In this document: positions 22,033 through 64,000 of the stretch, one piece after another
Position numbering within the stretch: position 1 is the first letter of the stretch
Layout of the letters: every line of letters starts with the position of its first letter
Translations under genes and position numbers: made by a program
Notes under the pieces: model-generated
The model's database searches: none
Told to the model about the DNA's origin: nothing
The model's input: the letters and a program-made list of their open reading frames with translations, nothing else
NCBI GenBank assembly: GCA_048267005.1
Contig: JBLWYI010000013.1
Location: 118,455-182,454 of the forward strand
Direction: 5' to 3'
DNA length: 64,000 nucleotides
Origin: Verrucomicrobiales bacterium
Lineage (GTDB): Bacteria; Verrucomicrobiota; Verrucomicrobiia; Verrucomicrobiales; DEV007

Positions 22033-22043
22033 TAAAGCCTCGA

Positions 22044-25648: not shown

Positions 25649-25717
25649 AGATTGAATCGTCTCTCAGGCCGCAATTTTCGTCAAGATCGTGAAATGGCTC
25701 AATCGGGCTGGCTGGAC

Positions 25718-26070: not shown

Positions 26071-26595
26071 TAGTAATGAGCCTTTTGTGTGTTGAGAGCC
26101 TGAACAGACGGGCTGGCTTGGACTTTTTCCTATGGTCCGACGCAGTTAAAGTTGAATTCGTTGAAAAACAGAACGGATTTTGGTGGTTAATGCGTTAATC
26201 AAAAGCAGGTTATAACCTTTGTTGAGTCTGTCTTGATTCCCCCTCAAACCAACCTGTTGCTGCGGTGAGTCGCCGTCCTCTCCCGCCGATATCACTTACG
26301 TAATTGTCCCGGCCGCCTCCCAAACAGGTGATTTGGCTGTGATATTTCTGGAAAATGGCTGTTTTCGGAGGCTGAAAGTCAAAATCGGCCCGTTGTGGCT
26401 ATTCGGATTTCCTTGCCAAAAGGGAGCGATTTCGTCATTCTGGCGTCATTACGTGGCACTTGTTTCCGCAGGGGTCCCTCTTGCTTAACCGCGCTTCGTA
26501 ACTATGTTTCTACTGGGTTGGTGTAATCTCGAGGCACCCATGCATTCCGAGATTTGTTCTGATCCTGTAAACTGTTTCAAGTTCCCTTCGACGTC

Positions 26596-32135: not shown

Positions 32136-32420
32136 AGGCGTAGATTTTGGTTTAATTAGTGGGATAAAACAAGCTTCGGTTTTCTGAAGTTGAGACGATT
32201 TCATCAGAACAGCCCGGGATCGTCCGTTATAAACGCCTGTCTGTATTGTAACGGGAGTGATGACATCGTCGAAACTTACAAAAGTATCGACCAATTGTAA
32301 TGGGCAAAGGACGGGCAACGGGGCAACATCCTCACATGCGGTCAAAATAAGAGTAAGCCAGCTTGACGAACCTCATTTGAATTTTACACACTACCCACCA
32401 AGAACCACAGACCACAAGCC

Positions 32421-33167: not shown

Positions 33168-33192
33168 CTGAAAACCGGAACCCTAAGAAACT

Positions 33193-35283: not shown

Positions 35284-35465
35284 ATTAACAAGGCGGGTCC
35301 ACCGGTTGCGACAATTCCTCGTTGCACCGTGGACCGACGCCGTATTTGAGGGCCGTTTGGCTTTGCCTGAACGCTACCTTCCAAGAGGTATCGAACGAGG
35401 AAGACAAATTATAGAGAACCACGGGAGGACGAGAGATCGTTGATGTCCTTGGAGCTGAAAACAAC

Positions 35466-38400
35466 ATGCCCGAAGAACCAATAGAAAAAAACACTGACGC
35501 CGGGGCGTCAGGAGCGGAGCAGCAACTCGAAGGCGGTGCCTACGAGATCATCCGGAACCGCCTCACGCAGCACGGTTCGGATCTGCGAACCCGGCTTGGG
35601 AAACTCAACTCGGAACGGCAGGCCGTCTTTGGTGCCGTTGAGCCTGCCTTAATCGCGACCGAGCGGGTAACGACCGACAATAATTGTGAAGCCCGTGACA
35701 TCATCGCTGTCGGCGATAACAAGTTCATCTTTGGTTACAATGTTCACATCGGTCTTAAGTCGATAACTGATCTTGCAGATGTGTTTGCGGCTTATGAATA
35801 TGATCCTGACACGCACACATTTTCGGATGTGGGATTGGATATTCTGAACAAGGGCACTTTTGCCGAGGACTTTCTTTACCTGTATAAATACTATCGGGAA
35901 ACAGTCTTCGTGAAGTTTATGAAGATCGGGCCGCACCTCTACATGGCGTTCCGGGTGGGCAAAAAGGTGGATGACATCAAATGCTTCAAGTGGCTCATCA
36001 AAGAGGGTGGTGTTCTGGAATACATTGGCAACCGGTTCGATCATGAATACAGGTTTCCGCCTCAGCAGGAGTTTGAGTGGGTGCGCGCACATCGCGGGAT
36101 GTACCGCGAGGGGATGCACCCGCATGTTTCGATCGACGACCGGCTTTTTGTTGAGACCGTGGGAGGCGACCTGACTGTAAAGGTCGAGGACAACACAGAG
36201 TCAGGGGAGGGGATTTACGAAGAGCAGGTGACCAATGAGGATCAGACTCTGGATGACGCCGAGATCTTTTATGCCATTGTCGGCAGCCTCATTTTGTTGA
36301 AGGTCCTGCCTTATCAGGAAAAGGATTACCGCTACCTCGTCTACAATGAGAAAGTCAAGTCGGTCACCAGGATTGATTCGATCGCAAACTCCTGTGTGTT
36401 GCTTCCGGAAGATCACGGGATCATCTTTTCCGACGGCTTTCACCTTCAGACAGGGGATACCAAGCGTTTCGATTCAGGACTGAGAGATATGCTCTTTGAG
36501 CGACGGGTCGCTTCGCCCAATGGAGAGGATTTCCTTTACGTGTTTTACAACCGGCTGTCAGGGACCTATGTCCTGATGTCGTACAATCTCATCGATCAGA
36601 AGGTTGATAACCCGATTGTTTGCAACGGTTACACCGTTTTTAAAAACGGGGAGTTGATCTACTTCCGCACGGATGAAGAACCGAAGAAACACCATGCTCT
36701 TCAAGTCTGGACAACGCCCTACATGGAGGGCGAGTTCCGTGTCGATGAGAAGACGGACAGCTACCTTTTCAAGATCGGGAACGCAGAGGTGGTGCGTGCC
36801 ATGGCGGAGTGCCATGAGATATTAAATCTGATCTCCCGGGATGATTCTTACGCCGACTTGTATGTGGATCTGACCAAGAAAGCTGGTGACCTGATTGATA
36901 CTTACTTCTGGATTGGCCAGGAAGCTGCGTTCAACTTGAAAGCTGCCCTTGGTGAAATCAAGGGAGCTGCAGAGGCAGCAATATCCGAGTTTGACAAGGT
37001 TCAACGCCTTCGCAAATCAACGGCTGACGAGTCAAAACGGGTTTCCGATTCAGCGAAACAAATCGCTAAGGCGGCGCGTAATACACGCCCCGATGACATC
37101 ATGGGTTTCGTCCACCGGTTATCGGAATTGCGGACCGTTCGTGGAGAAATTATTTCCCTGAAGGATCTGCGTTACGTTGACTCTGATACGGTTGAATCTC
37201 TCGAAGCTGAGGTGGTCGAGGCTACCGAAATGGTGTCGCAGAACTGTGTGGAGTTTCTTCTGGAGCCTGTTGCACTTGATCCTTACCGAGAGCAGGTCTC
37301 AGTTCAGGAGAAACGGGTTCCTGAAGTGGCGAAAGTAACTGAGGCGGATCAGGTTGAGGAGGAACTCGACAAGGCCGGAGCGGAGTTGGAGATGCTGATT
37401 GAGATCGTCACGAACTTAAAGATTGAAGACGCGACGCAGACCACGCAGATCATTGATGATATATCGGCCATCTACGCGACGCTGAATGCGGTTCGTGCTT
37501 CGCTAAGGAATCGCCGCAAGGCACTTTCGAAAACCGAAGGCGCGGCTCAGTTCGGGGCGCAGGTAAAGCTGATCAACCAGGCCGTGATCAATTATCTGGA
37601 TTTGTGTGAGACGCCGGAAAAGACCGACGAGTATCTCTCCAAGGTCATGGTCCAGCTCGAGGAACTTGAGGGGAACTTTTCGGACTTCGAAGATTATGTT
37701 GATGAACTGACCGAAAAGCGGGACGAGATCTACAACGCGTTTGAATCAAAGAAAGTCGCTCTTGTCGAAGCGCGAAACAAACGGGCTGGATCGCTCGTGA
37801 AGTCAGCCGAGCGGGTTCTCACTACAATTCAGCATCGACTTTCCAGTCTCGATTCAATCCCGGATATCAATGGCTATCTTGCTGGCGATTTGATGGTCGA
37901 GAAAGTGCGGGATATCATTGAACAGCTCAATTTGGTCGGGGATTCCGTCAAAGCCGACGACATTCAGACACGGCTGAAAACGCTGAGGGATGATTCAGTT
38001 CGTCAGCTAAAAGACCGCCAGGAGCTGTTTGTCGACGGAAAGAATATTATCCAGTTCGGGAACAATAAGTTTTCCGTCAATTCACAGGAGTTGGAGCTCT
38101 CAATTGTTCCGCACAATGAGAAGATGTGTTTTCACCTGAGCGGGACAGATTTCTTTGAAGCTGTAACCGATGAAGAATTTCTATCGACAAAATCGGTCTG
38201 GAATCAGGAAGTGCTTTCAGAAAACCGAACCGTTTATCGTGCTGAATATCTGGCGTGGAAGTGTTTGCAAGCCGGTGTGGAGCCGACTCTCGAAGCCGTT
38301 CAGAAATTCATGGCTCCGCGATACGCGGAGGGTTATACCAAAGGAGTTCACGACCGCGATGGATTTGCCATCTACGAAAAGCTGCATTCGGTTCACAGCC

Positions 38401-40661
38401 AGGTTGGGTTGCTTCGTTTTGCTCCTGAAGACCGGGCGCTTGCGTTGCTGTTCCTTCACCAGTGGAAAACAGATGGGGGGCATGATCAACTCGCGAAGAA
38501 GATTCGTGGCCTTGGAATTCTAAGAGAGAGTTATGCTTCGGATGCGGTGGCTGAAATTTACGTTGGGGAAATCAAAGACGAGCTCAATCATTTTCTCGAA
38601 ACCAGTGCGAGAAACTGCCCTCGCCTTAAAGCGGCAAATATTGATCAAGCGGCTGAGTATTTGTTTTTCGAATTACTCGATGCAAAGAAGTTTGCGATAT
38701 CGCCTCAAGCTGGCGAGGTCGTGAAACAGTTTCAGCATACGTTAACCGCGAAGCGGCTTGAGAAGCAGTTCGCGGCCGCGGTGGAAGGTTTCAATGGTGA
38801 TGCCACGGGACGCTTCGAAGTCACTCGCGACTGGATCGAGGGAATCTGTGGAGCTGAGATTGAGAAGAATGAGGTTTCCCCTGATCAACTGTCAACGGAC
38901 GGAGAGAAGCAGGAACGATCCAACACTGTAAGTTCGTTGAACGTACCCTATTGGATCGAAGCGGCGGTTCATCTGGTTCGGGGAGGGTTTGAATTGACGG
39001 CGATTCAGCAGATTGAAATGTCAGCCGCTTTGGAGGGGATTACCGGGTCGCACTCACTTGTGGAAGACGGGGTTTACCAGTTCGATTATATCAATTTCAC
39101 TCAGAGGTTGCGTCGTTTTGAAACCGAGGACGCTCCGCGCTTCGCTGCGTATCAGCATCGCAAAACCGATTTGATCGAATCCAAGCGCGAGGAGATGCGT
39201 TTGGAAGAGTTTAAGCCCAAGGTGATGTCTGCATTTGTGCGGAATAAATTACTGAACCGAATCTATCTCCCGTTGATCGGTGACAATCTGGCGAAGCAAA
39301 TGGGAACTGCCGGTGCGGATACCCGGACAGACCGAATGGGAATGTTGCTTCTGATTTCTCCGCCCGGATACGGAAAGACGACTTTGATGGAATACGTCGC
39401 CAACCGGTTGGGGATCACATTCATGAAGATCAACGGGCCGGCCATCGGGCATGATGTGACTTCCCTGGATCCGGAAGAAGCGCCCAATGCAAGCGCCCGC
39501 GAGGAGGTCAACAAGCTGAACCTGTCGCTTGAGATGGGGGACAATGTCATGATTTATCTCGATGACATTCAGCACTGCAACCCTGAGTTTTTGCAGAAGT
39601 TTATTTCGCTATGTGATGCTCAGCGGAAGATCGAGGGCGTCTGGAAAGGCAAGCCGCGCACTTATGACTTGAGGGGAAAAAAGGTCTGCGTCGTGATGGC
39701 TGGAAACCCTTACACCGAGAGCGGTGGCAAGTTTCAGATTCCCGACATGCTCGCGAACCGGGCGGACACTTATAATCTGGGGGATATCATCGGGGCTCAT
39801 TCCGGTGACTTCGAGGCGAGTTACGTCGAGAACTGCCTCACTTCGAACTCTGTCCTGAGTCAACTCGCCAGTCGCAGTCAGTCGGATGTCTATTCGGTGA
39901 TGAAGATTGCGGAAACGGGCAGCCACGAAGGAGTCGACTTTGAAGGGAACTATTCGATGGAAGAGATTGAAGACTTGGTCTCGGTGATGAAGAAGTTGAT
40001 GCGGGTTCGCGATACGATCCTGCGGGTAAATATGGAATACATCCGTTCCGCCGCGATGGAAGATGACTACCGCACCGAGCCACCATTTAGAATGCAGGGC
40101 TCATACCGGAACATGAACCGGATCGCTGAGAAGATCTTACCGATCATGACGGATGCCGAGGTCGAGCAAGTGATTATGGATCACTATGAAAATGAATCGC
40201 AGACGCTGACGGCCGGAGCGGAGGCAAATTTGCTGAAATTCCGGGAGCTGGAAGGGATTCAGACTGATGAGGAGAAAGTGCGGTGGGATGAGATTAAATC
40301 GAAGTTCAATCGCAATCAGTTGATGGGCGGACGTGGTGAAAACGATCCTGTCTCACGGGTGGTTGGCACGCTGGCGAGTATTCATGAAACTCTGGCAAAA
40401 GCGGCAACGCACCAGATGCAGCCTGCTACGTTGGCTGATGTAACGGTTGAGAGGTTGGCTGAAATTATTGCAAACCTGCGAGCGGTTCCGGTGGATGTAG
40501 AGATCAAGGTGGTTCCCGTTCACGAAGGCGAAGAAGAGGGGCCTCCTAAGAAGGTATCGAAAAAGAAGTCAGCTAAAACGAAAAAGATCTCAGGCAAGGA
40601 GATCAACCTTCCCGTGGATGTTGAGGCTGTCGTCGACCAAAAAGATGGTAATTCGGACTAG
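35466..40661 (+). CDS. Giant (1731 aa) protein of unknown function with a single MoxR/AAA_5-like P-loop ATPase module near the C-terminus
   Basis: ATG at 35466; Walker A 'SPPGYGKTT' (~aa 1290), Walker B 'VMIYLDDIQH', sensor-1-like 'VVMAGNP', Arg-finger-like 'DMLANRADTY'; ~1250 aa upstream with no motifs I recognise; Lys-rich C-terminal tail. Confidence 0.85.
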   Translation: MPEEPIEKNTDAGASGAEQQLEGGAYEIIRNRLTQHGSDLRTRLGKLNSERQAVFGAVEPALIATERVTTDNNCEARDIIAVGDNKFIFGYNVHIGLKSITDLADVFAAYEYDPDTHTFSDVGLDILNKGTFAEDFLYLYKYYRETVFVKFMKIGPHLYMAFRVGKKVDDIKCFKWLIKEGGVLEYIGNRFDHEYRFPPQQEFEWVRAHRGMYREGMHPHVSIDDRLFVETVGGDLTVKVEDNTESGEGIYEEQVTNEDQTLDDAEIFYAIVGSLILLKVLPYQEKDYRYLVYNEKVKSVTRIDSIANSCVLLPEDHGIIFSDGFHLQTGDTKRFDSGLRDMLFERRVASPNGEDFLYVFYNRLSGTYVLMSYNLIDQKVDNPIVCNGYTVFKNGELIYFRTDEEPKKHHALQVWTTPYMEGEFRVDEKTDSYLFKIGNAEVVRAMAECHEILNLISRDDSYADLYVDLTKKAGDLIDTYFWIGQEAAFNLKAALGEIKGAAEAAISEFDKVQRLRKSTADESKRVSDSAKQIAKAARNTRPDDIMGFVHRLSELRTVRGEIISLKDLRYVDSDTVESLEAEVVEATEMVSQNCVEFLLEPVALDPYREQVSVQEKRVPEVAKVTEADQVEEELDKAGAELEMLIEIVTNLKIEDATQTTQIIDDISAIYATLNAVRASLRNRRKALSKTEGAAQFGAQVKLINQAVINYLDLCETPEKTDEYLSKVMVQLEELEGNFSDFEDYVDELTEKRDEIYNAFESKKVALVEARNKRAGSLVKSAERVLTTIQHRLSSLDSIPDINGYLAGDLMVEKVRDIIEQLNLVGDSVKADDIQTRLKTLRDDSVRQLKDRQELFVDGKNIIQFGNNKFSVNSQELELSIVPHNEKMCFHLSGTDFFEAVTDEEFLSTKSVWNQEVLSENRTVYRAEYLAWKCLQAGVEPTLEAVQKFMAPRYAEGYTKGVHDRDGFAIYEKLHSVHSQVGLLRFAPEDRALALLFLHQWKTDGGHDQLAKKIRGLGILRESYASDAVAEIYVGEIKDELNHFLETSARNCPRLKAANIDQAAEYLFFELLDAKKFAISPQAGEVVKQFQHTLTAKRLEKQFAAAVEGFNGDATGRFEVTRDWIEGICGAEIEKNEVSPDQLSTDGEKQERSNTVSSLNVPYWIEAAVHLVRGGFELTAIQQIEMSAALEGITGSHSLVEDGVYQFDYINFTQRLRRFETEDAPRFAAYQHRKTDLIESKREEMRLEEFKPKVMSAFVRNKLLNRIYLPLIGDNLAKQMGTAGADTRTDRMGMLLLISPPGYGKTTLMEYVANRLGITFMKINGPAIGHDVTSLDPEEAPNASAREEVNKLNLSLEMGDNVMIYLDDIQHCNPEFLQKFISLCDAQRKIEGVWKGKPRTYDLRGKKVCVVMAGNPYTESGGKFQIPDMLANRADTYNLGDIIGAHSGDFEASYVENCLTSNSVLSQLASRSQSDVYSVMKIAETGSHEGVDFEGNYSMEEIEDLVSVMKKLMRVRDTILRVNMEYIRSAAMEDDYRTEPPFRMQGSYRNMNRIAEKILPIMTDAEVEQVIMDHYENESQTLTAGAEANLLKFRELEGIQTDEEKVRWDEIKSKFNRNQLMGGRGENDPVSRVVGTLASIHETLAKAATHQMQPATLADVTVERLAEIIANLRAVPVDVEIKVVPVHEGEEEGPPKKVSKKKSAKTKKISGKEINLPVDVEAVVDQKDGNSD

Positions 40662-47428: not shown

Positions 47429-47860
47429 ATGCCAACAGATTTACGCAGCCTCACTTCCGAACAAGACACACACGACTTTGGTGCCGAAGTCGCAGTCGGC
47501 CTGAAATCTGGCAGCGTCATCGGGCTGATCGGTCAGCTTGGAGCCGGGAAAACCCACTTCACTCAGGGAATCGTTAATGCTCTAGGATCAGAGGAATCAG
47601 TCACCAGCCCGACTTTTACGCTGGTTAACGAATACCATGACGGTCGGCTTCCGGTCTTCCACTTTGACTTTTACCGGATGGATACCCGCGACGAAGTCCT
47701 CAAGATTGGGTGGGACGAATTCCTCGACGAGCCGGGTATCGTCATTGTCGAGTGGGCCGATAAATTTGCCGAATTGATGCCCGAAGAAACATCCTGGTTC
47801 ACATTCAAGATCCAACCGGACGGCACCCGAACGATCGAACAGGGTCTGTCCGACAAGTGA
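47429..47860 (+). CDS. tsaE: tRNA threonylcarbamoyladenosine biosynthesis protein TsaE
   Basis: ATG at 47429; P-loop 'GQLGAGKT' and 'SPTFTLVNEY' TsaE motifs. Confidence 0.9.
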   Translation: MPTDLRSLTSEQDTHDFGAEVAVGLKSGSVIGLIGQLGAGKTHFTQGIVNALGSEESVTSPTFTLVNEYHDGRLPVFHFDFYRMDTRDEVLKIGWDEFLDEPGIVIVEWADKFAELMPEETSWFTFKIQPDGTRTIEQGLSDK

Positions 47861-47874
47861 ACAGGGTTGGATCG
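47831..47874. repeat. REP-like repeat pair ('cgatcgaacagggtctg' + 'gaacagggttggatcg') spanning the tsaE stop codon
   Basis: First copy encodes the last residues of TsaE (..EQGLSDK*), second copy lies in the convergent intergenic gap. Confidence 0.65.
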
Positions 47875-47879
47875 AAAAC

Positions 47880-48860
47880 CTAGACCGTTTGGCTGGTCTT
47901 TCGCTTTGCCCAGGCCGCTGCGCCCATCACTCCCGCATCATCTTCGAGGCTGGCTGCCACCACCTTGAAGCTGTTCTTGTAAGTCGCGATGAGATGCTTG
48001 TTGGCTGATTTGTGAACGTTCTTCACGTAAAGGTCAGGCAGAGCTTCGACTAAGCCACCACCGAGAACAATCAGGTCCGGTGCCAGGAGATGCACCACGG
48101 TGGCCACGCCGGCTCCCAGAGTTTTTGCCGCCTCCTTCACAATCTTTTCGATCGCTTTGTCGCCTTTCTCAATTGAGGCCGCGAGCTTTCCGCTGGTGAT
48201 TTTAGAAATATCAGTACCGCACAGTTTCAATAAATGGGGAGCCTGTCCACGGTAGGCCGCGCGGGCCGCTTCGATTGCAATTTTCAATCGGCTGCACTCA
48301 GTTTCCAGAGACGGGCCACCGTTCCCCAGAGGGATGTGTCCCAGCTCCATACAGGAAAGCTTGCCGCCCTGAAGCAACTGGCCATCCAGAACCGCACCCG
48401 CACCAATCCCGGTTCCGGGGAAAATTCCCACCACACAGTCCACACCTTTGGCGACACCCATTTGGTATTCGGCATAGATCCCGGCATCGACGTCATTGCA
48501 AATCCAGGTCGGAGCCCCGAACTCAGCAGTCAGATGCTCAGAGACCGGTACGTTTTTCCAGCCCAGATTCGGGGCTTCCACGAGGATGCCCGTCTTCGGG
48601 TTGATTGGACCGGGGCAACCCACTCCAATCGTTTCGATCTGATCCGCAGTTACTCCCGCGTTGTCGAGGGCTTCGCGAATAGTCAGTGCCATTCTCTTCA
48701 AGCCGGAGCTGACTCCGCGATGGCCTTCCGTTTTCGTCTTGGCACGTCCCAGCTCTTCGAAATTGTCATCGAAAATCTTAGCCAGCATTTTCGTGCCGCC
48801 GAGATCGAATCCGACGATGACTGAACCAGTATGAGATGGGGGGGATTGTTCTTTGCTCAT
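47880..48860 (-). CDS. ROK family sugar kinase (glucokinase-like)
   Basis: 'VIVGFDLGGTKM' and 'GCPGPIN' ROK motifs; ATG overlaps the dxr stop. Confidence 0.9.
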   Translation of the reverse strand: MSKEQSPPSHTGSVIVGFDLGGTKMLAKIFDDNFEELGRAKTKTEGHRGVSSGLKRMALTIREALDNAGVTADQIETIGVGCPGPINPKTGILVEAPNLGWKNVPVSEHLTAEFGAPTWICNDVDAGIYAEYQMGVAKGVDCVVGIFPGTGIGAGAVLDGQLLQGGKLSCMELGHIPLGNGGPSLETECSRLKIAIEAARAAYRGQAPHLLKLCGTDISKITSGKLAASIEKGDKAIEKIVKEAAKTLGAGVATVVHLLAPDLIVLGGGLVEALPDLYVKNVHKSANKHLIATYKNSFKVVAASLEDDAGVMGAAAWAKRKTSQTV

Positions 48861-50029
48861 GACGCAACGATTGAGGTGGCTGTCTCACGGGCCCATGTAT
48901 CTGCAGCGATAATTTCGTCCAGAGTCGGATGCGCTGTCACGGAGTGATCGGCCATTACCTGACCCACCGTTTCCCAGATTTGGGGAAAACCCAACGATTT
49001 TTCCAGAAAAGCGGCCACTGCAATCTCATTGGCAGCATTCATCACTGCCGGAAGCGTTCCTCCTTCTTTGCCCGCCCGCTTGGCGAGATTCAGAGCCGGG
49101 AAGTCATCAAACCTGGGTTTCTCAAAATCGAGCTGCGCCAGTTCGGCGAAATCAAGCGGTGGCAATGTGTTTGGAACCCGCTCCGGCCAGGTCACTGCGT
49201 ATTGAATCGGGAAACACATGTCCGTGGTGCTGAGCTGCGCCAGAATGGAGCCATCAATAAATTCCACCATGCTGTGGACGATACTCTGTGGGTGGACGAT
49301 GACATCGACGCGATCCATTTCGACATCGAAGAGCCATCGTGCCTCTATCATTTCCAGGCCTTTGTTGAAAAGGGTCGCAGAGTCGATCGTGATCTTCCGG
49401 CCCATTTCCCATGTGGGGTGTTTCAAGGCCTGCTCCACGGTGACAGCATCCAGTTCCTCCTTCGGTGACTGGCGAAAAGGCCCACCGGACGCCGTCAGGA
49501 TAAGTCGGGAAACATCGGTCGATTTCTTTCCCTCAAGACACTGGAAGATCGCATTGTGCTCCGAGTCGACCGGCAACACATTGACTCCTTTTTCGCGGGC
49601 AGCGGTCATCACCGCTTCGCCGGCCATGACCAGAATCTCCTTGCTGGCTACGGCAATGTCTTTCCCGGCCTCGATAGCTGCCAGCGCAGGGCGGAGCCCG
49701 TCCGTGCCGACAATCGCGATGAGAACCATGTCAGCTTCAGGCAGCGTGGCCAGCTCGATCATGCCCTCTTCGCCGACACCGGTCTTTATATCGATCCCGT
49801 TTAAGCCACTCTTCAATTCGCCATGGCAGGATTCGTCCGTCAGCGAGCAATGTTTGACTGAGAATTCCGCACACTGTTCAGCGAGACGCTTCGCACTGCG
49901 ATTCGCGGCGAGAGCGATGACCTCCATTCTCTCCGGAATATCGCGAGCCACTTTAAGCGCGCTTTCCCCGATGGAACCGGTGGATCCAAGAATAACGAGT
50001 TTTTTCGGGGGAGGGGAGTCTTCAGGCAT
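48857..50029 (-). CDS. dxr: 1-deoxy-D-xylulose 5-phosphate reductoisomerase
   Basis: 'KKLVILGSTGSIGESAL' NADPH-binding motif; ATG at 50029 preferred over GTG at 50038. Confidence 0.95.
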   Translation of the reverse strand: MPEDSPPPKKLVILGSTGSIGESALKVARDIPERMEVIALAANRSAKRLAEQCAEFSVKHCSLTDESCHGELKSGLNGIDIKTGVGEEGMIELATLPEADMVLIAIVGTDGLRPALAAIEAGKDIAVASKEILVMAGEAVMTAAREKGVNVLPVDSEHNAIFQCLEGKKSTDVSRLILTASGGPFRQSPKEELDAVTVEQALKHPTWEMGRKITIDSATLFNKGLEMIEARWLFDVEMDRVDVIVHPQSIVHSMVEFIDGSILAQLSTTDMCFPIQYAVTWPERVPNTLPPLDFAELAQLDFEKPRFDDFPALNLAKRAGKEGGTLPAVMNAANEIAVAAFLEKSLGFPQIWETVGQVMADHSVTAHPTLDEIIAADTWARETATSIVAS

Positions 50030-50034
50030 GTGGG

Positions 50035-50940
50035 TCACGAAATAAACAGCAAATACAGATACAGAACAGGAGCGGTAAACAGCACTGAATCAATCAGATC
50101 CAGCACCCCACCAATGCCGGGCATTTTGCGGCCGGAATCTTTGGCTTCCAGGCTTCGCTTCAGGATTGATTCCGCCAAATCTCCCAAAACCGCGACCAGC
50201 GCCAGCGCTACCGCCAGTATGGCGGCATGAAGCGGAGTGATCAGGGGAATCTTGTCCCCGAAGAGAAAATACGCTCCGAAACTCGCAATGAATCCAAAGA
50301 GAATGGCCCCGCCGAAGCCCTGCCAGGTCTTACCGGGGCTGACATGCGGTACCATTTTGTCGCGACCGATCAGTGAGCCCACCGCGTAGGCACCCATATC
50401 GGTGAACTTGGTGACCATCAGCAGGAAAAGAACGTAAAAATGAGCAGAATCGTTTCCGGACGTATCTTTCAGATCGAGCAGCAGGATCTTCGGCACAAAA
50501 GCGAAAAGAATCACGATGTAGATAAAACCAAAGATGGTCGTCGATATTTCATCCAGTGTCCGGAACCCTTCAATCGGGGCGCGCAACCGTTCCAGCACAA
50601 CACAGATCACCAGCGCTGCGACGGCCAGGCTGTCCAGATCAACAAGCCAGTCCGGCGAGAAACCCCAGTGCCGGGCAAAAAGCAACCCGAGGTAGGCTGC
50701 AGTGACCCCATAGGTCTGCCATTGAAACCGGCGAAAGCCCCGCAGGGGGAACAGTCCGAAGTATTCAAACAACGCCAGAAACGCGATGGCCCCGGCGATG
50801 GTGAAAAACAACCAGTCGATCGCCAACCAGAACGCCACGACGAAAAAGGCCCACAAAAAAAGCGTGCTGACGAGGCGGCTGCCGAAAACTTGTTTTTTCG
50901 AAGGCTTAGGGGCGGTTTTTTCTGAAGAATCGTCGGACAT
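50035..50940 (-). CDS. cdsA: Phosphatidate cytidylyltransferase (CDP-diglyceride synthase)
   Basis: C-terminal signature 'ESILKRSLEAKDSGRKMPGIGGVLDLIDS'; ATG at 50940. Confidence 0.9.
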   Translation of the reverse strand: MSDDSSEKTAPKPSKKQVFGSRLVSTLFLWAFFVVAFWLAIDWLFFTIAGAIAFLALFEYFGLFPLRGFRRFQWQTYGVTAAYLGLLFARHWGFSPDWLVDLDSLAVAALVICVVLERLRAPIEGFRTLDEISTTIFGFIYIVILFAFVPKILLLDLKDTSGNDSAHFYVLFLLMVTKFTDMGAYAVGSLIGRDKMVPHVSPGKTWQGFGGAILFGFIASFGAYFLFGDKIPLITPLHAAILAVALALVAVLGDLAESILKRSLEAKDSGRKMPGIGGVLDLIDSVLFTAPVLYLYLLFIS

Positions 50941-51036
50941 GCAAGCGGGCAATTCGCCGCCAAGGAAACAGGGTCACGACCGAGTTGGCAATGACGAAGT
51001 TGCGCAAATTCACCACTTAAAGCGTTAGTTCCGGTT

Positions 51037-51381
51037 TCAATCAGGTTCTCCCCGCTTCGCATCACCCACCCCATCAAGGAAGAATTCGAGGTGACCGCAT
51101 TCCGGGCAGTGGTAAATGTCGAACCGCTCCGATCGCGAGCCGAGTTGGAACCCCATCAGGTGAATTTCAAGTGAGTCATCCTCTTTAAACCTGCGGGTGC
51201 CGTCATAAACGAGCTGCTTGTTGCAGCGAAGACAGCTCATGAAGCGTTTGATTTTCTTCGCATGAGCTTGTCGCTCCAGGGCCAACTCATCCGGCTTTGC
51301 TCCTTTGTCAGAAGAGCAGCGCCAGCAAGTTTCCCACGAATCTTCGTCGATTTCGGCTTCGCATACCAGGCAGGTCCACAT
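51037..51381 (-). CDS. Small double zinc-ribbon protein (hypothetical)
   Basis: Two CxxC..CxxC pairs ('CLVCEAE..CWRCSS', 'CLRCNK..CPECGH'). Confidence 0.6.
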   Translation of the reverse strand: MWTCLVCEAEIDEDSWETCWRCSSDKGAKPDELALERQAHAKKIKRFMSCLRCNKQLVYDGTRRFKEDDSLEIHLMGFQLGSRSERFDIYHCPECGHLEFFLDGVGDAKRGEPD

Positions 51382-51407
51382 CCGTTGTTTCTATCAGAAA
51401 TCTACGG

Positions 51408-52250
51408 TTACGGCCTCCCTTTTCCTTTTGAGCCTTTACCTTTGCCCCCTTTATCCCCGCCTTTGCCCCCGCCGCTGTCGATTTTGCCATCGCCATCACG
51501 ATCCTCGCCGTAGGGCATTTCGTTCTCGAAAAAGATTCGCTCGCGGCGGCCCGTGTCGACGTGTTCGCTGTAGACTTTGCGTTCTTCAGTGAGGGAAAAC
51601 CCTGTATTGGCTTTCAAAAGCGCAGTCTTGATTTCTTCGGCGCTGGCTGTGAGTGGCAATTGCTCGACCACCCGTCCCGATTGACCAAATGGATCGGCAT
51701 GGACGATGACGAGCCCGGATTTGCCCCGTGTCCGTTCAATGTTTTCGGCCCAGGCGGCATCTTTGGCCGTATCGGCGAAGTCGAGATGAAATTTCCCGAT
51801 GACCTCGTCATCCGCGAAAACCGGTTTGAGGGTTTGCTTTACCTTGGCCTGATCATCATCAGCTGCGGCGACAAAGAGCAGCAATCGTTGGTCTCCAGCC
51901 GCCACATTCAGGGCCTGCCGAAAGGTGTGAAAGTCTTGCAGCGTCGCGTCCTTTTCATCACCACGGGGGCGATAGGACATTGCGATGTTTTCCAGCGCTT
52001 TGATCACTTCTTCGGCCGACGGTTCATTATCCGGGCCGGGGCGACCGGCGGAAAGCCCGTGCTCAGGACCGCGACCGGTGCGGGAGAGCCGTTCCTTTCC
52101 GTCAGGTGCCAGAATGCAGAACGCGGTGTTGGCGAATCGACCGTTTAAAAGGGACCGGACCAAATCCTGGTGTTCCTGGCTTTCATATGATTCGAGACGG
52201 ACACAGACAAATTTACGTGAAGCTTCGATGAATTCTTTTTGTGAGAACAA
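51408..52250 (-). CDS. Hypothetical protein with Gly/Lys-rich C-terminal tail
   Basis: 280-aa ORF with TTG start (no in-frame ATG near the N-terminus); tail 'GGGKGGDKGGKGKGSKGKGRP'. Confidence 0.55.
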   Translation of the reverse strand: MFSQKEFIEASRKFVCVRLESYESQEHQDLVRSLLNGRFANTAFCILAPDGKERLSRTGRGPEHGLSAGRPGPDNEPSAEEVIKALENIAMSYRPRGDEKDATLQDFHTFRQALNVAAGDQRLLLFVAAADDDQAKVKQTLKPVFADDEVIGKFHLDFADTAKDAAWAENIERTRGKSGLVIVHADPFGQSGRVVEQLPLTASAEEIKTALLKANTGFSLTEERKVYSEHVDTGRRERIFFENEMPYGEDRDGDGKIDSGGGKGGDKGGKGKGSKGKGRP

Positions 52251-52277
52251 ACTGTTCTGCGTTTTGGTGTAACCGGG

Positions 52278-52505
52278 TCAGAACACTCCGGAGATGCCGG
52301 AGCAGGTAGCGGCGGCTGCCATGAAGAAAATAGGTCGATTGGAGCGGGCTGCTTCTGCGAGAGCGGTGTCCCAGGTCGTGTACCACATAATGCCGGCATC
52401 ACCGACTGGTTGAGGGCTCGCCGCGATGTCGGTCGGGCGGGTTCCCTGTGAGTATACTGCAGTTGCCCCGAGGGTTGCTACCATAAGTGTTTTCAGGATA
52501 TTCAT
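52278..52505 (-). CDS. Small putative secreted protein (75 aa)
   Basis: ATG; signal-peptide-like 'MNILKTLMVATLGATAVYSQG'; directly upstream of the preceding hypothetical gene. Confidence 0.35.
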   Translation of the reverse strand: MNILKTLMVATLGATAVYSQGTRPTDIAASPQPVGDAGIMWYTTWDTALAEAARSNRPIFFMAAAATCSGISGVF

Positions 52506-52594
52506 AGGAAGATGAACAAAGCATGAATAAAGTGGTTGCAGAATTTTCTGATTTTCGAATGAAGGCGAACAGATCTTCCTTCCAAATGCGTGAA

Positions 52595-52637
52595 CGATCC
52601 AACAGGGTCTGATCGACGAGGCAACCCTGTTGTCTCG
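52595..52637. repeat. REP-like repeat, inverted pair forming a hairpin ('ccaacagggtctg ... caaccctgttg')
   Basis: 8-bp perfect inverted cores separated by ~15 nt. Confidence 0.6.
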
Positions 52638-52727
52638 TGCGTCTTTTCAGCTAGGGAAAACCGACTGCTTCCTGTCTTTTAATGCCAACTTTGAAGCATG
52701 AGTTTGACCTGGAAAAAGTACCCAATT

Positions 52728-52990
52728 TGCGGGTCCGCACGAACGGTACCCTGCCGTCAGGACGTCCTGACGGGCAGGTACCACACGGATATGGGCAAAA
52801 GTGCGTCCTGACGGGCAGGTACCACACGGATATGGGCAAAAGTGCGCCCTGACGGGCATAAATCGCACGGACATGGGCAAAAGGACGTCCTGACGGTCAT
52901 AAATCGTACGGACATGAGCAAAAGGACGTCCTGACGGTCATAAATCGTACGGACATGAGCAAAAGGACGTCCTGACGGTGGGTGCCGTCC
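52728..52990. repeat. Tandem array, 41-bp unit, ~6 copies ('gacgggcaggtaccacacggatatgggcaaaagtgcgtcct'; later units diverged to 'gacggtcataaatcgtacggacatgagcaaaaggacgtcct')
   Basis: Contiguous units without spacers; first unit contains a GACGTC-centred palindrome. Confidence 0.9.
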
Positions 52991-53086
52991 GCGAAATGGC
53001 GAAAATGGTGCCTGAACGCGGGAGTTTCGATTGGTGTATCGGCGCTGAACTTTTTGAGAGCACCCGGTTTGTAAACGGGGCGCAGT

Positions 53087-55003
53087 TTGCTACGTTCGCG
53101 CGTGTCATCTCCTGAAAAACGCAAAATTGCCTACCTGTTTTCCCGTTATCCGGTTGTTTCGCAGACTTTTTGCGATTCGGAAATGCTGGCTCTGGAATCC
53201 CGTGGCTTTGATCTCGACATCGCATCGATCAATCCACCGCCAAATCCGTTTCGTCACGAGAGGTTTGAGCAATTCGAGGCAGATGCTTTTTACCCGCCGT
53301 CTTCGTCCGTGCTGTCTCAACTGAAGAAGAACGCCCAGGCGGACGGAACGTGGCAGGAGCGCTTCGGGGACATGATTGCCCGTCATAACACGGAATACGG
53401 GCCGGGTTTCAAGGCTGATATCCGGGCGAGGAATGCGCTCTATTTTGCTGAACTCTTCAAGAAGCGCGGGATTCAGCATTTCCACGTCCATTTCGCCAAC
53501 CGGGCGACACACACGGCTCTTTTCATCAAACAATGGTCCGGGATTCCGTTCAGTTTCACGCCTCATGCCCAGGATTTCATGATCGATCTGGGCAGCGACG
53601 ATTTGTTGCGGGAGATGTGTCGTGAAGCTGAGTTTGTCATCGGGGTGAGCGATTTTTCCTGTGATCTGCTGCGCGAGACCTGCCCCGACTCCGCAGAAAA
53701 GATCAGCCGGATTTACAACGGGATCGACATGAGTCAGTTCCCGCAGGCACCCATCAATGACACGGGACCACTGCGGATTGTTTCGATTGGCCGGTTGATC
53801 GACTTCAAAGGGTTCAATCATTTGATCGCCGCCTGCGCTCTCCTCAAGGAACGCGGCGTAGAGTTTTCCCTGACGATTGTGGGGGACGGTCCGTTGCGGG
53901 AGCCGTTGCAAAATCAAATCGCAGAGCTCGGGTTGGAAGCTGAAGTCACGCTTGCCGGGGTGATGAGCCAGGAGCAGGTGAAATCCACGCTCCAGAACAG
54001 TGAGGTGTTTGCTCTGGCCTGTGTGGTCGATTCCAAGGGAGCGAGTGACATTTTACCGACGGTGATTACCGAGGCGATGGGTTGCCGGTTGCCGATTGTG
54101 TCGACGAGGCTCGTTGGAGTTCCTGAGATGGTTGATCATGAGAAGACAGGTCTTCTTGTCGAGCCCGGAAACGAAGCTGAACTGGCGGACGCCCTGGCTG
54201 TTTTTGCTGAGGATCGTGGAAAGGCCCGCGCTATGGGACTGGCTGGTCGCGAGCGGTCGGAATCGATCTTCGAGTTGAAGATCACGGCGGATCAATTGAT
54301 CTCCAAATTTGAGTCAGTCATGGCGCCACCGGCGGAGGTGCCGCAAAATCCACCGATACTGTTTTTGGTGGATGAATTCCCGCTTTCAACATCAGCCAAC
54401 GAATGGCATCGCGAATCGATCCTGAATGAGCTGGCGTTTGCCGCCAAACATCACGCGGAGGCCATTGAGATCATGGCGGCCCGTTCGGCGCGTCGTTTTG
54501 ATAAGGAGCGAACGGCTGAGATCTTCCCGAACTGGGCGGAGACGGTTGAGTTTTTCCCGGACGGGCTGGTTTTGGAAGCGGAGTGGCACAACCAACCGGA
54601 GGCCGTTTCAAGAATTCTCGAATTGCGGGGCAAGTTGGGGACGGGGCTTGATACCGAATTTTACTTTGCCCAGGCGAGGCGGGCTTTACATCTCGCGCGG
54701 GTGATTCGGAAACGTGGCACAGCACGACTCCACGCGGTCCGGAGTGACATGGCGGTGTGTGCGTGGCTCGTCTTTAAATTGACGGGAGTTCCGTTTTCGT
54801 TTTCGGCGGAGCCGGATTCATCAATAGGATCGGACACGCTGGATAAACTTGCCAGTGATGCGGTCGAAATCGCGAAGCTGGATTTGGCAGAGCCGGATCG
54901 CACCAAGCGCCTCAAACTGGGACCGCTGAAACTGAAGTTGCCCGGTGAATCAGACCTGCCTGAACGCAGCGGAGCTCTGGAGGCCTGGTTCGGCAATCTG
55001 TAA
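53087..55003 (+). CDS. Glycosyltransferase family 4 (GT-B, group 1) with ~230-aa C-terminal extension of unknown function
   Basis: 'EAMGCRLPIVSTRLVGVPEMVDHEKTGLLVEPGN' GT4 motif; start is TTG (53087) or GTG (53102), no ATG near the N-terminus. Confidence 0.8.
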   Translation: MLRSRVSSPEKRKIAYLFSRYPVVSQTFCDSEMLALESRGFDLDIASINPPPNPFRHERFEQFEADAFYPPSSSVLSQLKKNAQADGTWQERFGDMIARHNTEYGPGFKADIRARNALYFAELFKKRGIQHFHVHFANRATHTALFIKQWSGIPFSFTPHAQDFMIDLGSDDLLREMCREAEFVIGVSDFSCDLLRETCPDSAEKISRIYNGIDMSQFPQAPINDTGPLRIVSIGRLIDFKGFNHLIAACALLKERGVEFSLTIVGDGPLREPLQNQIAELGLEAEVTLAGVMSQEQVKSTLQNSEVFALACVVDSKGASDILPTVITEAMGCRLPIVSTRLVGVPEMVDHEKTGLLVEPGNEAELADALAVFAEDRGKARAMGLAGRERSESIFELKITADQLISKFESVMAPPAEVPQNPPILFLVDEFPLSTSANEWHRESILNELAFAAKHHAEAIEIMAARSARRFDKERTAEIFPNWAETVEFFPDGLVLEAEWHNQPEAVSRILELRGKLGTGLDTEFYFAQARRALHLARVIRKRGTARLHAVRSDMAVCAWLVFKLTGVPFSFSAEPDSSIGSDTLDKLASDAVEIAKLDLAEPDRTKRLKLGPLKLKLPGESDLPERSGALEAWFGNL

Positions 55004-60882: not shown

Positions 60883-62562
60883 ATGCCGCCATCGCTCCCG
60901 ACATCCAGTTCCGCCCGTCTCCATGATCTGGATGCGTTGCGGGCCTTTGCGATGTTGCTGGGCATTATTCTACACGCCGCCATCGCCTTCGTTCCGTTTC
61001 CCGGTTGGCTCGTGCAGGATGTGGAGAGACCGATGTGGAACACCCCTGAATTTCTCCACCAGCTGGGCCTCACCCTGCCGGAGACGTTCAGCCCGATGGC
61101 TCTGTTGCTCAACCTCATCCACGCCTTCCGGATGCAGTTGTTCTTTGTCGTGAGTGGATTCTTTGCGGCCATGCTCTGGAAAAAGCGCGGGCTGCGGGCA
61201 TTGCTCAAGCATCGCGCAAAACGCATCCTCCTGCCGCTCGTTCCGGCCACGATACTTATCTGGCCGCTCGTCGCACTCGCGGGGCTTATGGTGGCAGGGA
61301 CAAAGCCGGATTCTCTCTGGGTGGCGGCGAAGGAGGGGCGGATCGAGGTGGTGAAAGCGCAGCTTGAGGCAGGAGTCGACCCGAACGAACTCGATCCGTC
61401 AGCCGGTGTTTCGGCCCTGACCTGGTCGGCATGCGCCGGGCATCTGGAGGTCGCTGAATGGTTGATTGCCAGCGGAGCCGAGGTGGAACGGCGGGATCGG
61501 GACGGGGGAACACCTCTCCATGCCGCGGTGTTCTTCGCCCATCCAGAGGTGGTCAACTTGCTGGTGGCGAATGGCGCTGACGTACAGGTCAAGAATCAGC
61601 GGGGCGAATCGGCCCTTGATGTGGTTGAGGCTGACTACGGAACCACAAAATTCATTGGCAGGCTGATCGGGGTTCCTGTCAAAGAAGAGGCAGCCTTCGC
61701 TGATAGCCGTGAGCAAATAGGAAAACGCTTGGGGAAACTCGAAGGGGAAGTTGAGAGCGATTCAACGTGGGAGATTTGGAAGATGATTCTCGGTGTCTAC
61801 ATGGCAGCGGCGATGGCTCCGGTCTTTCTGCACCTGTGGTTTCTGCACTATCTCTTTTGGCTTGTCCTGTTGTTTGCCTTCGCGGCCTGGAGGTATGAAA
61901 AATCGGGCCGCAAATTTCGTCCCCGGATTGCCTGGTTGATTCCATTGGCGGTTATTCCGCAGCTGTTCATGGTCCTGGATTTTGGTCCCGACACCGCTCC
62001 GGGATTGATCCTGTGGCTGCCCAAGCTTGCCTACTACGCGGTGTTCTTCGGAGTCGGGGCCCTGTTTTATGGGCGGCCGGATTTTGGTGAGAAGCTCAAG
62101 CTTCGATGGCCTGTGCTCTTTGCCGTGGCTCTGCCGGTCGGCTGCATCGCCCTGTATTTCAATTTCCTGAGAGACGTGACCTTTGAAGCCGGCTTTGATG
62201 AGAATCAGGTGCCGGTATTTGGCTTTCACATCATCTATTGCATCGGCGCGGTGGCATTCGCCTGGCTTATGGTCTTCGGGATGATTGGAGTCTTCCGCCG
62301 GTTTTTTCCCGCAGAAGACCCGCGGATTCGCTACATTTCAGACGCGAGCTACTGGCTCTACATCGCGCATTTGCCGCTGCTGTTTTTCATCCAAATCGCC
62401 ATGACCGGCTGGGAGTTTCCCGCGCTGTTGAAACTGTTGATCGCCTGCGTTGCCACGATTGGAATTCTCCTTCTCGCCTACGAGTGGTTCGTTCGATACA
62501 CTTTTATCGGCACATTGCTGAATGGGAAAAAAGTGAAGCCGTCACGAACCAACAGGGTCTGA
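60883..62562 (+). CDS. Acyltransferase family 3 (OafA-like) membrane protein with internal ankyrin-repeat insert
   Basis: 'LDALRAFAMLLGIILHAAIAF' AT3 N-terminus; ankyrin repeats ('GGTPLHAAVFFAHPEVVNLLVANGADV'); ATG at 60883 just after the upstream stop. Confidence 0.85.
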   Translation: MPPSLPTSSSARLHDLDALRAFAMLLGIILHAAIAFVPFPGWLVQDVERPMWNTPEFLHQLGLTLPETFSPMALLLNLIHAFRMQLFFVVSGFFAAMLWKKRGLRALLKHRAKRILLPLVPATILIWPLVALAGLMVAGTKPDSLWVAAKEGRIEVVKAQLEAGVDPNELDPSAGVSALTWSACAGHLEVAEWLIASGAEVERRDRDGGTPLHAAVFFAHPEVVNLLVANGADVQVKNQRGESALDVVEADYGTTKFIGRLIGVPVKEEAAFADSREQIGKRLGKLEGEVESDSTWEIWKMILGVYMAAAMAPVFLHLWFLHYLFWLVLLFAFAAWRYEKSGRKFRPRIAWLIPLAVIPQLFMVLDFGPDTAPGLILWLPKLAYYAVFFGVGALFYGRPDFGEKLKLRWPVLFAVALPVGCIALYFNFLRDVTFEAGFDENQVPVFGFHIIYCIGAVAFAWLMVFGMIGVFRRFFPAEDPRIRYISDASYWLYIAHLPLLFFIQIAMTGWEFPALLKLLIACVATIGILLLAYEWFVRYTFIGTLLNGKKVKPSRTNRV

Positions 62563-62587
62563 CCGGTGAGGCAACAGGGTTGGATCG
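62543..62587. repeat. REP-like repeat pair ('cgaaccaacagggtctgaccg' + 'gaggcaacagggttggatcg') spanning the acyltransferase stop codon
   Basis: Same two-unit arrangement as at the tsaE 3' end. Confidence 0.65.
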
Positions 62588-62597: not shown

Positions 62598-63002
62598 CTA
62601 AGACTTAGTGATAATTTCATCGGCCAGTTTATCGGTGATCCCTTCTCGAGCGTCCACCCACTTCAGGCTTTTAATTTCATCAGGGATGTCACAATCATGA
62701 AGGAGAATGGGAACAACTCTGGCCAAAGTATTCATAGGGTCGTTGAATAAATGTAACCATACCTCGAAATTAGCCCATTTTGATTCTACAAAAGAAGGGG
62801 ATAGTAAAATGAGAGCCCGTCGCGAATTCTTCATTCCTGCAACAACTTCTATTCCAATATTTGCCCCATAATTTAGATCGTCGTCAAACCAGCACGGACG
62901 ACCTTTGGATGTGAAAATATCTCGAAGTAGTTTTGCTTCAATCTTGTCGTCCGAAGAATGGGAGAGAAAGAAGCTAAATTGGTATTTGTCGATTTTGCTC
63001 AT
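62598..63002 (-). CDS. Minimal TIR-domain protein (134 aa)
   Basis: 'FSFFLSHSSDD' beta-A motif, 'ALILLSPSFVESKWANFEVW' with Glu in the catalytic-Glu position; ATG overlaps the upstream gene stop (ATGA); region GC ~40%. Confidence 0.85.
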   Translation of the reverse strand: MSKIDKYQFSFFLSHSSDDKIEAKLLRDIFTSKGRPCWFDDDLNYGANIGIEVVAGMKNSRRALILLSPSFVESKWANFEVWLHLFNDPMNTLARVVPILLHDCDIPDEIKSLKWVDAREGITDKLADEIITKS

Positions 63003-63574
63003 GCTGCTTTCGCCAATGACATCGAAAGTTCTTTCCCCCGATCAGTCAGTTCAAATAGCTTTTCTTTGTGGCCCGCTTTCTCAATATTGCTTTCAACAAA
63101 GCAGCCTTGGCTAATTAAGGAATTTACTTGCGCCGTCGCGTTTGTAGATGAAGCGCCATATTCGCTTTTTAGCCGAACCGTGAGAATTGACGTGCGTAGG
63201 TATACTTCAGGCACTTCCAACTCTTGCAGCCACCCCATCAGAAGAAGCTTATCTTTGAATTGATTTAACCTGTGAATCGCATCTTTGGCACTGTATTCAA
63301 CAGACCCGTTTCGCTTAATTCGCTTCCGTTTAAATTGGTGCAAAACAAGCCGTCTAAGGTGTCGAGGGCTCACTTCCAAGAGTTCGCTCAAGAGACCAAG
63401 CGATATCCGATCAAGGGGTTCCTCGTCCGCTAAATGAATGAAATTTGGAAGATAGTAATCATCTTCAAGTCCAATTTCGATAAGGATTTCCTGCATTGCA
63501 AGGTCACGCTGCTCTCCCTTAATCTGCAAAAACGTATTCAACGCTTGCAAATAGTTATTCGTTTCGGGCCCCAT
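62999..63574 (-). CDS. HTH/winged-helix domain protein (191 aa), translationally coupled partner of the TIR gene
   Basis: HTH-like 'LGLLSELLEVSPRHLRRLV' and C-terminal winged-helix-like 'AQVNSLISQGCFVESNIEKAGHKEKLFELTDRGKEL'; low GC. Confidence 0.75.
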   Translation of the reverse strand: MGPETNNYLQALNTFLQIKGEQRDLAMQEILIEIGLEDDYYLPNFIHLADEEPLDRISLGLLSELLEVSPRHLRRLVLHQFKRKRIKRNGSVEYSAKDAIHRLNQFKDKLLLMGWLQELEVPEVYLRTSILTVRLKSEYGASSTNATAQVNSLISQGCFVESNIEKAGHKEKLFELTDRGKELSMSLAKAA

Positions 63575-63861: not shown

Positions 63862-63868
63862 GAGGAGC

Positions 63869-64000
63869 GACCTTCCGAACGTTCAGACACGGGGTTGTGA
63901 AAAACGTACGACCTTCCGAATGCTCAGACACGGGGTTGTGAAAAACAAACGACCTTCCGAACGTTCAGATACGAGGTTGTGAAAAACAAATGACCTTCCG
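63869..64000. repeat. Tandem array, 41-bp unit, at least 3.2 copies, truncated by window end ('gaccttccgaacgttcagacacggggttgtgaaaaacgtac')
   Basis: Contiguous units with point variants; runs to the last base of the window. Confidence 0.9.

Follow-up and report, generated by a model that had tools for sequence, protein, structure and literature searches.

A lineage-specific 41-bp tandem array, possibly part of a small MITE- or BOX-like insertion, in an uncultured Verrucomicrobiales bacterium

The 64,000-nt stretch of DNA analyzed here (referred to as the window) originates from an uncultured Verrucomicrobiales bacterium and carries, between two divergently oriented genes, a tandem array of 41-bp units designated array 2. 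The array consists of five full units (52769-52973) plus partial units, and is contained in an element of 242 bp (52745-52986) that has inverted termini of 23/24 nt and is flanked by a direct duplication of 9-12 bp. Neighbouring units are identical or nearly so, with a single intermediate one; the locus has no coding capacity, matches no known RNA family and is absent from four relatives. The explanation that we favour, and to which we assign roughly even chances, is that array 2 is a young, lineage-specific, non-coding minisatellite within a small insertion resembling either a miniature inverted-repeat transposable element (MITE) or a BOX element. A sequence-specific cellular function is not required to account for it.

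Structure of the tandem array

Array 2 extends over 52759-52979; Tandem Repeats Finder placed it at 52759-52978, with a period of 41, 5.4 copies, 91% matches, 0% indels and a score of 279. Identity at a lag of 41 amounted to 165/180 positions (0.92) within the array, compared with a background of 0.246 +/- 0.033 and a maximum of 0.367 in 180-nt windows elsewhere in the analyzed sequence. The locus therefore represents a tandem repeat or minisatellite, i.e. a unit of 10-100 bp that recurs head to tail at least twice, well above chance. The full units are as follows:

52769-52850, units 1-2, subfamily A, containing GGTACC; a single transition distinguishes the two units
52851-52891, unit 3, intermediate, sharing 33/41 positions with A and 38/41 with B
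52892-52973, units 4-5, subfamily B, mutually identical, containing CGTACG and the extended junction palindrome ATGA..GGACGTCC..TCAT

The order of the units is thus A, A, hybrid, B, B, and it is completed by partial units of 10 nt at the left end and 6-14 nt at the right end. A first-pass annotation of this DNA had counted about six copies and taken the segment 52728-52768 for the first of them. This segment agrees with unit 1 at no more than 20/41 positions: the true partial unit is confined to its final 10 nt, and the rest is an inverted copy of the unit start. The same annotation distinguished two diverged subfamilies, composed of units 1-2 and 3-5, respectively, and put the divergence between them at about 40%. 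Two subfamilies can indeed be recognized, but unit 3 is intermediate, and the measured divergence between A and B is 27% (30/41 positions common, 11/41 different).

The observation that the 41-nt register is kept throughout was confirmed, since there are no indels and the register never breaks. The accompanying statement that register is conserved more strongly than sequence implies selection acting on the period and could not be upheld. Neighbouring units are simply young duplicates, identical or one base apart, so the absence of indels is uninformative about selection on the register. No internal periodicity of 20-21 bp, which would have made each unit a pair of half-units, was found in the array units. 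A clustered regularly interspaced short palindromic repeats (CRISPR) array was rejected, because the units abut without spacers and their variation consists of point changes.

Termini and flanking direct repeats

The boundaries of the element are defined by the following features:

52733-52744, direct repeat on the left flank, GTCCGCACGAAC, similar to a target-site duplication
52745-52768, left inverted terminus, an inverted partial unit GGTACCCTGCCGTCAGGACGTCCT, with a core, CCGTCAGGACGTCCT, that is fully (100%) complementary to each junction of the B-type units
52745-52782, palindrome of 38 bp centred on GACGTC, in which the inverted partial unit pairs with the beginning of unit 1 at 16/19 arm positions
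52964-52986, right inverted terminus, composed of the last junction and a diverged partial unit AGGACGTCCTGACGGTGGGTGCC
52987-52998, right flanking direct repeat GTCCGCGAAATG

Both termini are composed of unit sequence (the terminus sequence is also written GGTACCCTGCCGTCAGGACG), and their inner 15 nt, AGGACGTCCTGACGG, recur at every B-type junction. When the left terminus was aligned with the reverse complement of the right one, allowing one gap, 21 of the 24 columns matched, as is proper to terminal inverted repeats. The near-perfect palindrome centred on GACGTC, which had been assigned to the first unit, is present, but its left part is the inverted partial unit, which pairs with unit 1. 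Directly outside the termini, the two flanking repeats agree at 9 bases when a gap of 2 nt is introduced; among 12-mers paired at random from the window, an alignment this good was reached by only 0.5% (p ~0.005). With its length of 242 bp, no spanning open reading frame (ORF) and no Pfam match, the element has the properties of a small non-coding element.

Genomic context and absence from relatives

Array 2 lies between a secreted thioredoxin-like gene (52505..51408, minus strand) and, downstream, a divergently transcribed gene encoding a family 4 glycosyltransferase, whose start is probably the GTG at 53102. The position upstream of a glycosyltransferase gene and the proximity of an inverted pair similar to repetitive extragenic palindromic (REP) sequences had both been correctly noted in the first-pass annotation. 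Two further features of this region have to be listed:

52560-53086, window-specific intergenic segment of 527 bp, corresponding to ~70 bp between the same conserved anchors in relatives L001, L017 and L018
52594-52638, REP-like hairpin, a member of a separate, dispersed, clade-wide family and not part of array 2

Relatives L001, L017 and L018, with glycosyltransferases 78-80% identical to that of the window, retain the divergent gene pair without the array, and L002 (72% identical) likewise lacks any array. The 527-bp segment is replaced by ~70 bp in the first three of these relatives, and array 2, the REP-like hairpin and the DNA around them are therefore lineage-specific. The unit pattern of array 2 was also absent from the JGI metagenome contigs and from IMG/VR. 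Derivation of the array units from the REP-like family was rejected, as the two show no sequence similarity. REP, BIME and REPIN sequences are characterized by a short palindromic unit that is dispersed in numerous copies and frequently headed by GTAG or CGTC, whereas the units of array 2 are unique to the locus.

Coding capacity and RNA families

No ORF spans array 2, in agreement with its earlier description as non-coding and intergenic, and the plus strand contains 3-4 stop codons in every frame across it. The minus-strand ORFs over the array (62-95 aa) start inside the repeat, have no Pfam match, and their sequence is absent from relatives; they had been suspected of being repeat artefacts, and this interpretation was supported. 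A conserved ORF for a repeat protein, with a period of 123 nt, was also looked for among the relatives and none was found, as these do not contain the sequence. A coding repeat was consequently rejected, also because a period of 41 is not a multiple of three. A search of the whole window against Rfam at gathering thresholds gave no match, permissive thresholds around arrays 1 and 2 returned only chance hairpin matches, and neither tRNA nor transfer-messenger RNA genes were found.

Three arrays with a period of 41 bp

Autocorrelation analysis (lags 8-300) revealed only three non-coding periodic regions in the window, all of them at lag 41; the other periodicities lie in genes and are multiples of three. 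Intergenic DNA constitutes 7% of the window, and the arrays fill its three largest gaps. The occurrence of all three non-coding arrays within 64 kb at exactly the same period is a genuinely unusual feature. The two other arrays, together with a flanking motif of array 2, are located as follows:

25718-26069, plus strand, array 1, 8.6 copies of an unrelated 41-bp unit, the outermost units containing GTC[GA]TGACGGCA
63868-64000, array 3, a third 41-bp unit in 3.2 or more copies, truncated by the end of the window
52706-52725, minus strand, flank motif TTGGGTACTTTTTCCAGGTC, the start of a ~140-nt flank like that of array 1

Variation inside arrays 1 and 3 consists almost entirely of transitions, as expected for unconstrained DNA. 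Array 1 is missing from the syntenic locus of relative L025 (orthologue 74% identical), where the flanks align and the window is ~640 bp longer (25710-26351); no array was present at this locus in L026 and L027 either. Direct repeats of 14/15 nt (25704-25717 and 26109-26123) flank array 1.

Arrays 1 and 2 resemble each other at their edges. Within the window, the exact sequence GTCNTGACGGCA is confined to the outermost units of array 1 (25725 and 26012) and to the left terminus of array 2, where it lies on the minus strand (52752-52763). The probability that these arrays share an 11/12 match by chance was estimated at ~0.03. Comparison of their ~140-nt flanks gave z = 3.9-4.3 in one relative orientation and ~0.5 in the other. 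The flank core ACTTTTTCC..GGTC..AAAGTT was found only beside array 2 and at 26118 in 466 kb and, as read from the sequence, both arrays start directly after GGAC when placed in the flank-sharing orientation. No orientation-specific flank signal was detected for array 3. Judging by these sequence resemblances, arrays 1 and 2 are probably one diverged family of insertions, and membership of a common family would be the simplest, if unproven, reason for their shared period.

When ~400 kb of sequence from relatives was sampled for arrays with a period of 41, only one of 42 bp, located at the end of a contig (L009), and one of 21 bp (L008) were obtained; this is weak evidence, since short-read assemblies would break at such arrays. 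No description of 41-bp arrays in Verrucomicrobia was found in the literature. The L009 array (positions 1-185 of a more distant Verrucomicrobia assembly) is terminal and comprises 4.4 copies. Its unit contains the 14-bp palindrome GGGGAAnnTTCCCC, whose central dinucleotide alternates between CA and TG from unit to unit, giving an 84-bp super-period, and the 9-mer GACCTTCCG is common to this array and array 3.

Some additional observations concern the surroundings of arrays 1 and 3. The unit of array 1 is open in each of its three plus-strand frames, which generates a spurious 98-aa ORF (25763-26059) located wholly in the repeat; an automatic annotator would probably call it as a gene. At 26443-26476 (plus 26500-26520), upstream of a gene with WD40/cytochrome domains, there is a non-coding block, GCGTCATTACGTGGCACTTGTTTCCGCAGGGGTC, that is 34/34 identical in L025, although the proteins are just 74% identical. 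This block has no Rfam match; a role as promoter, operator or leader RNA is conceivable. Directly downstream of array 3 lies a defence-like gene set (62598-63574) encoding a TIR-domain protein (PADLOC candidate PDC-S66, ThsB-like) and a 191-aa partner. Another defence-like set (31656-40661) encodes a phage CII-like regulator, two proteins without a family match and a 1731-aa DUF3686/AAA ATPase; the syntenic position in L025 is occupied by other genes.

Proposed origin of array 2

We propose that a small element landed in the divergent promoter region of the thioredoxin-like and glycosyltransferase genes, probably because this DNA tolerates insertions. The 15-nt self-complementary junction motif, present every 41 bp, would let strands misalign during replication or recombination, and such misalignment may lead to the gain and loss of units, including recent duplications of A to AA and of B to BB. 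The identity of units 4 and 5, the near-identity of units 1 and 2 and the intermediate character of unit 3 can be read as traces of this process. The 41-bp period shared by the arrays would go back to descent from one element family, in which the internal units were turned over by concerted evolution while their length remained fixed. Any effect on the host is probably limited to promoters placed ~450 bp further apart and to extra hairpin-prone DNA. Slippage, mobility and common descent are thus the processes that we infer from the anatomy and distribution of the element.

Several observations weigh against this explanation. Neither the 64-kb window nor ~400 kb of sequence from relatives contained another copy of the terminus or the unit core; the dispersal of copies that is a hallmark of MITEs is therefore not shown. 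No transposase gene was identified in the window. The duplication flanking array 2 is imperfect, and no empty site is reconstructable from the relatives. Array 1 has no inverted termini and its flanking repeats are of another length; one transposase would therefore fit both arrays poorly. The units of the three arrays show no significant relatedness: 15-21/41 positions match over all rotations and both strands (p = 0.04-0.4), the three-way rotation is inconsistent (12/41), and no motif common to all three arrays was found. This also applies to the sequence blocks that array 3 had been thought to share with array 2 (19-21/41 matches over every rotation, p = 0.04-0.17, not significant). The individual flank matches between arrays 1 and 2 are weak (blastn E ~1.7 each), and one equally high-scoring match lies in the opposite orientation; these flanks plus one 12-mer are all that ties the shared period to common descent. 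Finally, the tetranucleotide GTAC, which is depleted across the clade, occurs once in almost every unit, and this could point to a function or a foreign origin.

Alternative explanations

One alternative, which we regard as unlikely, assumes that array 2 is a set of protein-binding sites (an operator or decoy, a partition-like site or a methylation-sensitive switch) in the shared promoter region, and that its copy number would tune or phase-vary the glycosyltransferase. Glycosyltransferases are a classic class of phase-variable genes. Each unit contains the palindrome AGGACGTCCT, with TGACGGTCA in addition in the B units, at distances of about four helical turns, and the period is close to that of the F-plasmid centromere sopC (43 bp). 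A perfect palindrome of 10 bp is found at each junction, reaching ~28 bp in the B units, but the A-type junctions break the palindrome (GTGCGTCC). Array 3 has a 14-bp palindrome, TCCGAACGTTCAGA, and adjoins the 191-aa protein, which looks DNA-binding by eye only.

The distribution of GTAC would also be consistent with binding sites. Among the tetranucleotides of the window, GTAC ranks second in under-representation (36 observed vs 100 expected from a Markov model), and its observed/expected ratio is 0.24-0.28 in every group of relatives sampled. This approximately four-fold, clade-wide depletion suggests a restriction or repair bias. Six of the 36 sites in the window fall within 52718-52947, about one per unit, in the form of GGTACC in the A units and the left terminus and of CGTACG in the B units. 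They may matter to the cell, e.g. for methylation, or the element may be too young or too foreign for them to have been purged.

Against protein binding stand the facts that the palindrome of array 2 occurs nowhere else in the window, that the three arrays lack a common motif and that no regulator gene adjoins arrays 1 or 2. Domains of the ParA, ParB or Rep type, expected if the array were a centromere or a set of iterons, were not identified in the window. Moreover, the gene pair exists without the array in four relatives, which indicates that array 2 is not part of a conserved regulation.

It is also improbable, in our view, that array 2 was born purely in place by replication slippage, starting from two chance copies of the 15-nt motif 41 bp apart, with the shared period being a coincidence or a bias of the replication machinery. 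A partial unit at each end is expected for arrays born by slippage, and no second copy of the termini was found in the sequence sampled. Independently arising, fast-evolving tandem repeats are documented for archaeal Borg elements (PMC9879509). However, slippage alone leaves the inverted terminal copy and the flanking direct repeat unexplained, as well as the absence from relatives of the entire 527-bp segment, which extends beyond the array itself, and the flank and edge 12-mer shared by arrays 1 and 2. The equal period of three out of three arrays would have a chance of roughly (1/60)^2 if periods were spread over 20-80 bp.

A further possibility, to which we attach little weight, is that the 41-bp arrays form a functional class in which a molecular ruler, and not common ancestry, determines the length of the unit. 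Taking both versions of this idea together, the ruler could be an RNA-protein system, with 41-nt modules processed and bound singly in the manner of a type III antitoxin and with an unlinked partner, or an integrase- or nuclease-driven duplication of exactly 41 bp at palindromic sites. Either version would conserve the period and leave the sequence free to differ between loci.

That array 2 itself is transcribed to a repetitive non-coding RNA seems very unlikely. In this case the 41-nt modules would act singly, either as a type III antitoxin-like RNA cut by an endoribonuclease or as a protein sponge with a GGA-type motif, and the shared period would reflect the size of the RNA module or its protein partner. 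The unit length of 41 nt and the 5.4 copies fall within the ranges published for type III antitoxins (31-62 nt for toxIN and 40-48 nt for cptIN, with 1.9-5.6 copies; PMC3401426). On the minus strand, the array is followed by a strong palindrome and by the sole terminator-like site of this strand (52734-52720, weak, with a 5-bp stem), and array 3 lies upstream of the TIR-domain defence-type operon. Compared with shuffled sequence, folding is much stronger for both strands of array 2 (z = -5.6 and -4.3), but this follows trivially from the self-complementary junctions and favours neither strand.

No toxin-like gene follows array 2 in either direction: its neighbours are the thioredoxin-like and glycosyltransferase genes, present in relatives without the array, and its flanks contain no ORF of at least 60 aa except repeat-derived ones. 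A type III toxin-antitoxin system was rejected, as there is no ToxN/CptN/TenpN-type gene immediately downstream. For the 191-aa protein encoded beside array 3, neither a homologue in the protein database nor a match to Pfam, PADLOC, ToxN or Abi models was found. In addition, the array has neither an Rfam match nor any conservation, no sigma-70-like promoters or terminators beyond chance were found near any array, and no terminator follows array 1.

Two other types of promoter were considered. An ECF-sigma-type (extracytoplasmic function) promoter in each unit was dropped, because the GGAC-N17/18-CGTA of the B units only loosely resembles a putative GGGAA-N17-CGTC upstream of a nearby ECF sigma gene and is absent from array 1. 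A promoter common to arrays 1 and 2 was rejected: the motif C[AC]ATTTTCG[CT]CA precedes both arrays, but the similarity is weak (p = 0.06-0.09), and at array 1 the motif belongs to the ancestral flank, which is kept in L025.

Finally, an assembly artefact or a coding repeat is scarcely credible: although the contig was assembled from a metagenome, in which tandem repeats are error-prone, and one minus-strand frame is open across the array, the variants are ordered, the flanks are unique, the three arrays differ in sequence, and neither the period nor the repeat-derived ORFs fit a gene.

Comparison with known repeat systems

The small insertion with an internal minisatellite that we favour for array 2 has its closest parallel in the pneumococcal BOX elements (boxA-(boxB)n-boxC). 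Both are small, non-coding, intergenic and hairpin-capable, and in both a head-to-tail internal module of similar size is present in a variable number between terminal sequences. In the case of BOX, longer arrays vary more in copy number (PMC3049150). Unlike array 2, BOX copies share their A, B and C modules genome-wide; here the units of the three arrays are unrelated, a weak ~140-nt flank (z ~4, in one orientation) and the edge 12-mer are common to arrays 1 and 2 only, and no second copy of the array 2 termini was found.

The mycobacterial interspersed repetitive unit-variable number tandem repeats (MIRU-VNTRs) and the 34-46-bp VNTRs of Leptospira are intergenic minisatellites used for strain typing. 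Array 2 resembles them in its intergenic position, in having few copies of a unit in the 40-100-bp range with near-identical neighbours, and presumably in changing its copy number by slippage. In contrast to array 2, MIRUs are located inside operons and their sequence is shared between loci, whereas the loci described here share a period and not a sequence. In the sopC centromere of the F plasmid, a 43-bp unit is repeated in tandem 12 times, and SopB binds the inverted repeat present in every copy. Array 2 is similar to sopC in that its tandem units span about four turns of the helix and contain a short palindrome each; array 2, however, has a chromosomal context without partition genes nearby, is not conserved, and is one of three arrays with different palindromes within 64 kb.

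The ToxI, CptI and TenpI arrays are similar to array 2 in consisting of 1.9-5.6 tandem units of 31-62 nt followed by a palindrome (PMC3401426). Unlike them, array 2 has no downstream endoribonuclease toxin gene and no predicted promoter, and the housekeeping-type genes flanking it exist without the array in relatives. The tandem repeats of archaeal Borgs (PMC9879509) are likewise lineage-specific, recent, fast-evolving and distributed over many loci with locus-specific units; the abstract of that report describes no single shared period, whereas all three arrays in the window have a period of 41.

Neighbouring genes and the REP-like family

The REP-like family represented by the hairpin next to array 2 has the form CGATCCAACAGGGTCTGwTCG, followed after a short spacer by an inverted copy (AACCCTGTTGGATCG, a hairpin of ~43 nt) or by a direct copy 22 nt further on. 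Its sites in the window, apart from 52594-52638, are 21995-22033, 30109, 47829-47870, 62544-62585 and 7914-7945, and the 11-mer core occurs 6 times vs ~1 expected. The family was also found in L002, L017, L025, L026 and L027, and most copies are located just past gene ends.

The gene order around array 2 differs from that of the closest relative, L017 (window 47880-55003 vs L017 8770-15079). In L017 the glycosyltransferase gene is followed by cdsA, dxr and a ROK kinase gene, while in the window these three lie beyond the thioredoxin-like gene, on the opposite strand. The different placement of these genes indicates a local rearrangement around the array-bearing gene pair.

The thioredoxin-like gene (51408-52505, minus strand) contains an in-frame TGA at 52278-52280 (..CSGISGVF*PGYT..), at the position expected for the first active-site Cys of the thioredoxin fold. 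A hairpin, AGAACAgttTGTTCT, is located at 52244-52258, ~20 nt downstream of the TGA, and both are kept in L001 and L017. Judging by this arrangement, the TGA looks like a selenocysteine codon with a bacterial selenocysteine insertion sequence (SECIS) element, and the gene does not look like a pseudogene. Gene callers break it into two ORFs.

Implications

Array 2 is a new, lineage-specific example of a familiar class, the small non-coding repeat elements with an internal minisatellite. If its origin is the one favoured here, it would add one more small selfish repeat family, in an uncultured Verrucomicrobiales lineage; it could then serve as a strain-typing marker and as a warning that ORFs called across the array are artefacts. 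The sole feature that could hide novelty is the 41-bp period shared by three arrays of unrelated sequence. Should this period turn out to be a genome-wide rule for unrelated arrays, it would point to a length-setting mechanism, or to a modular RNA- or protein-binding function, as yet undescribed in the phylum.

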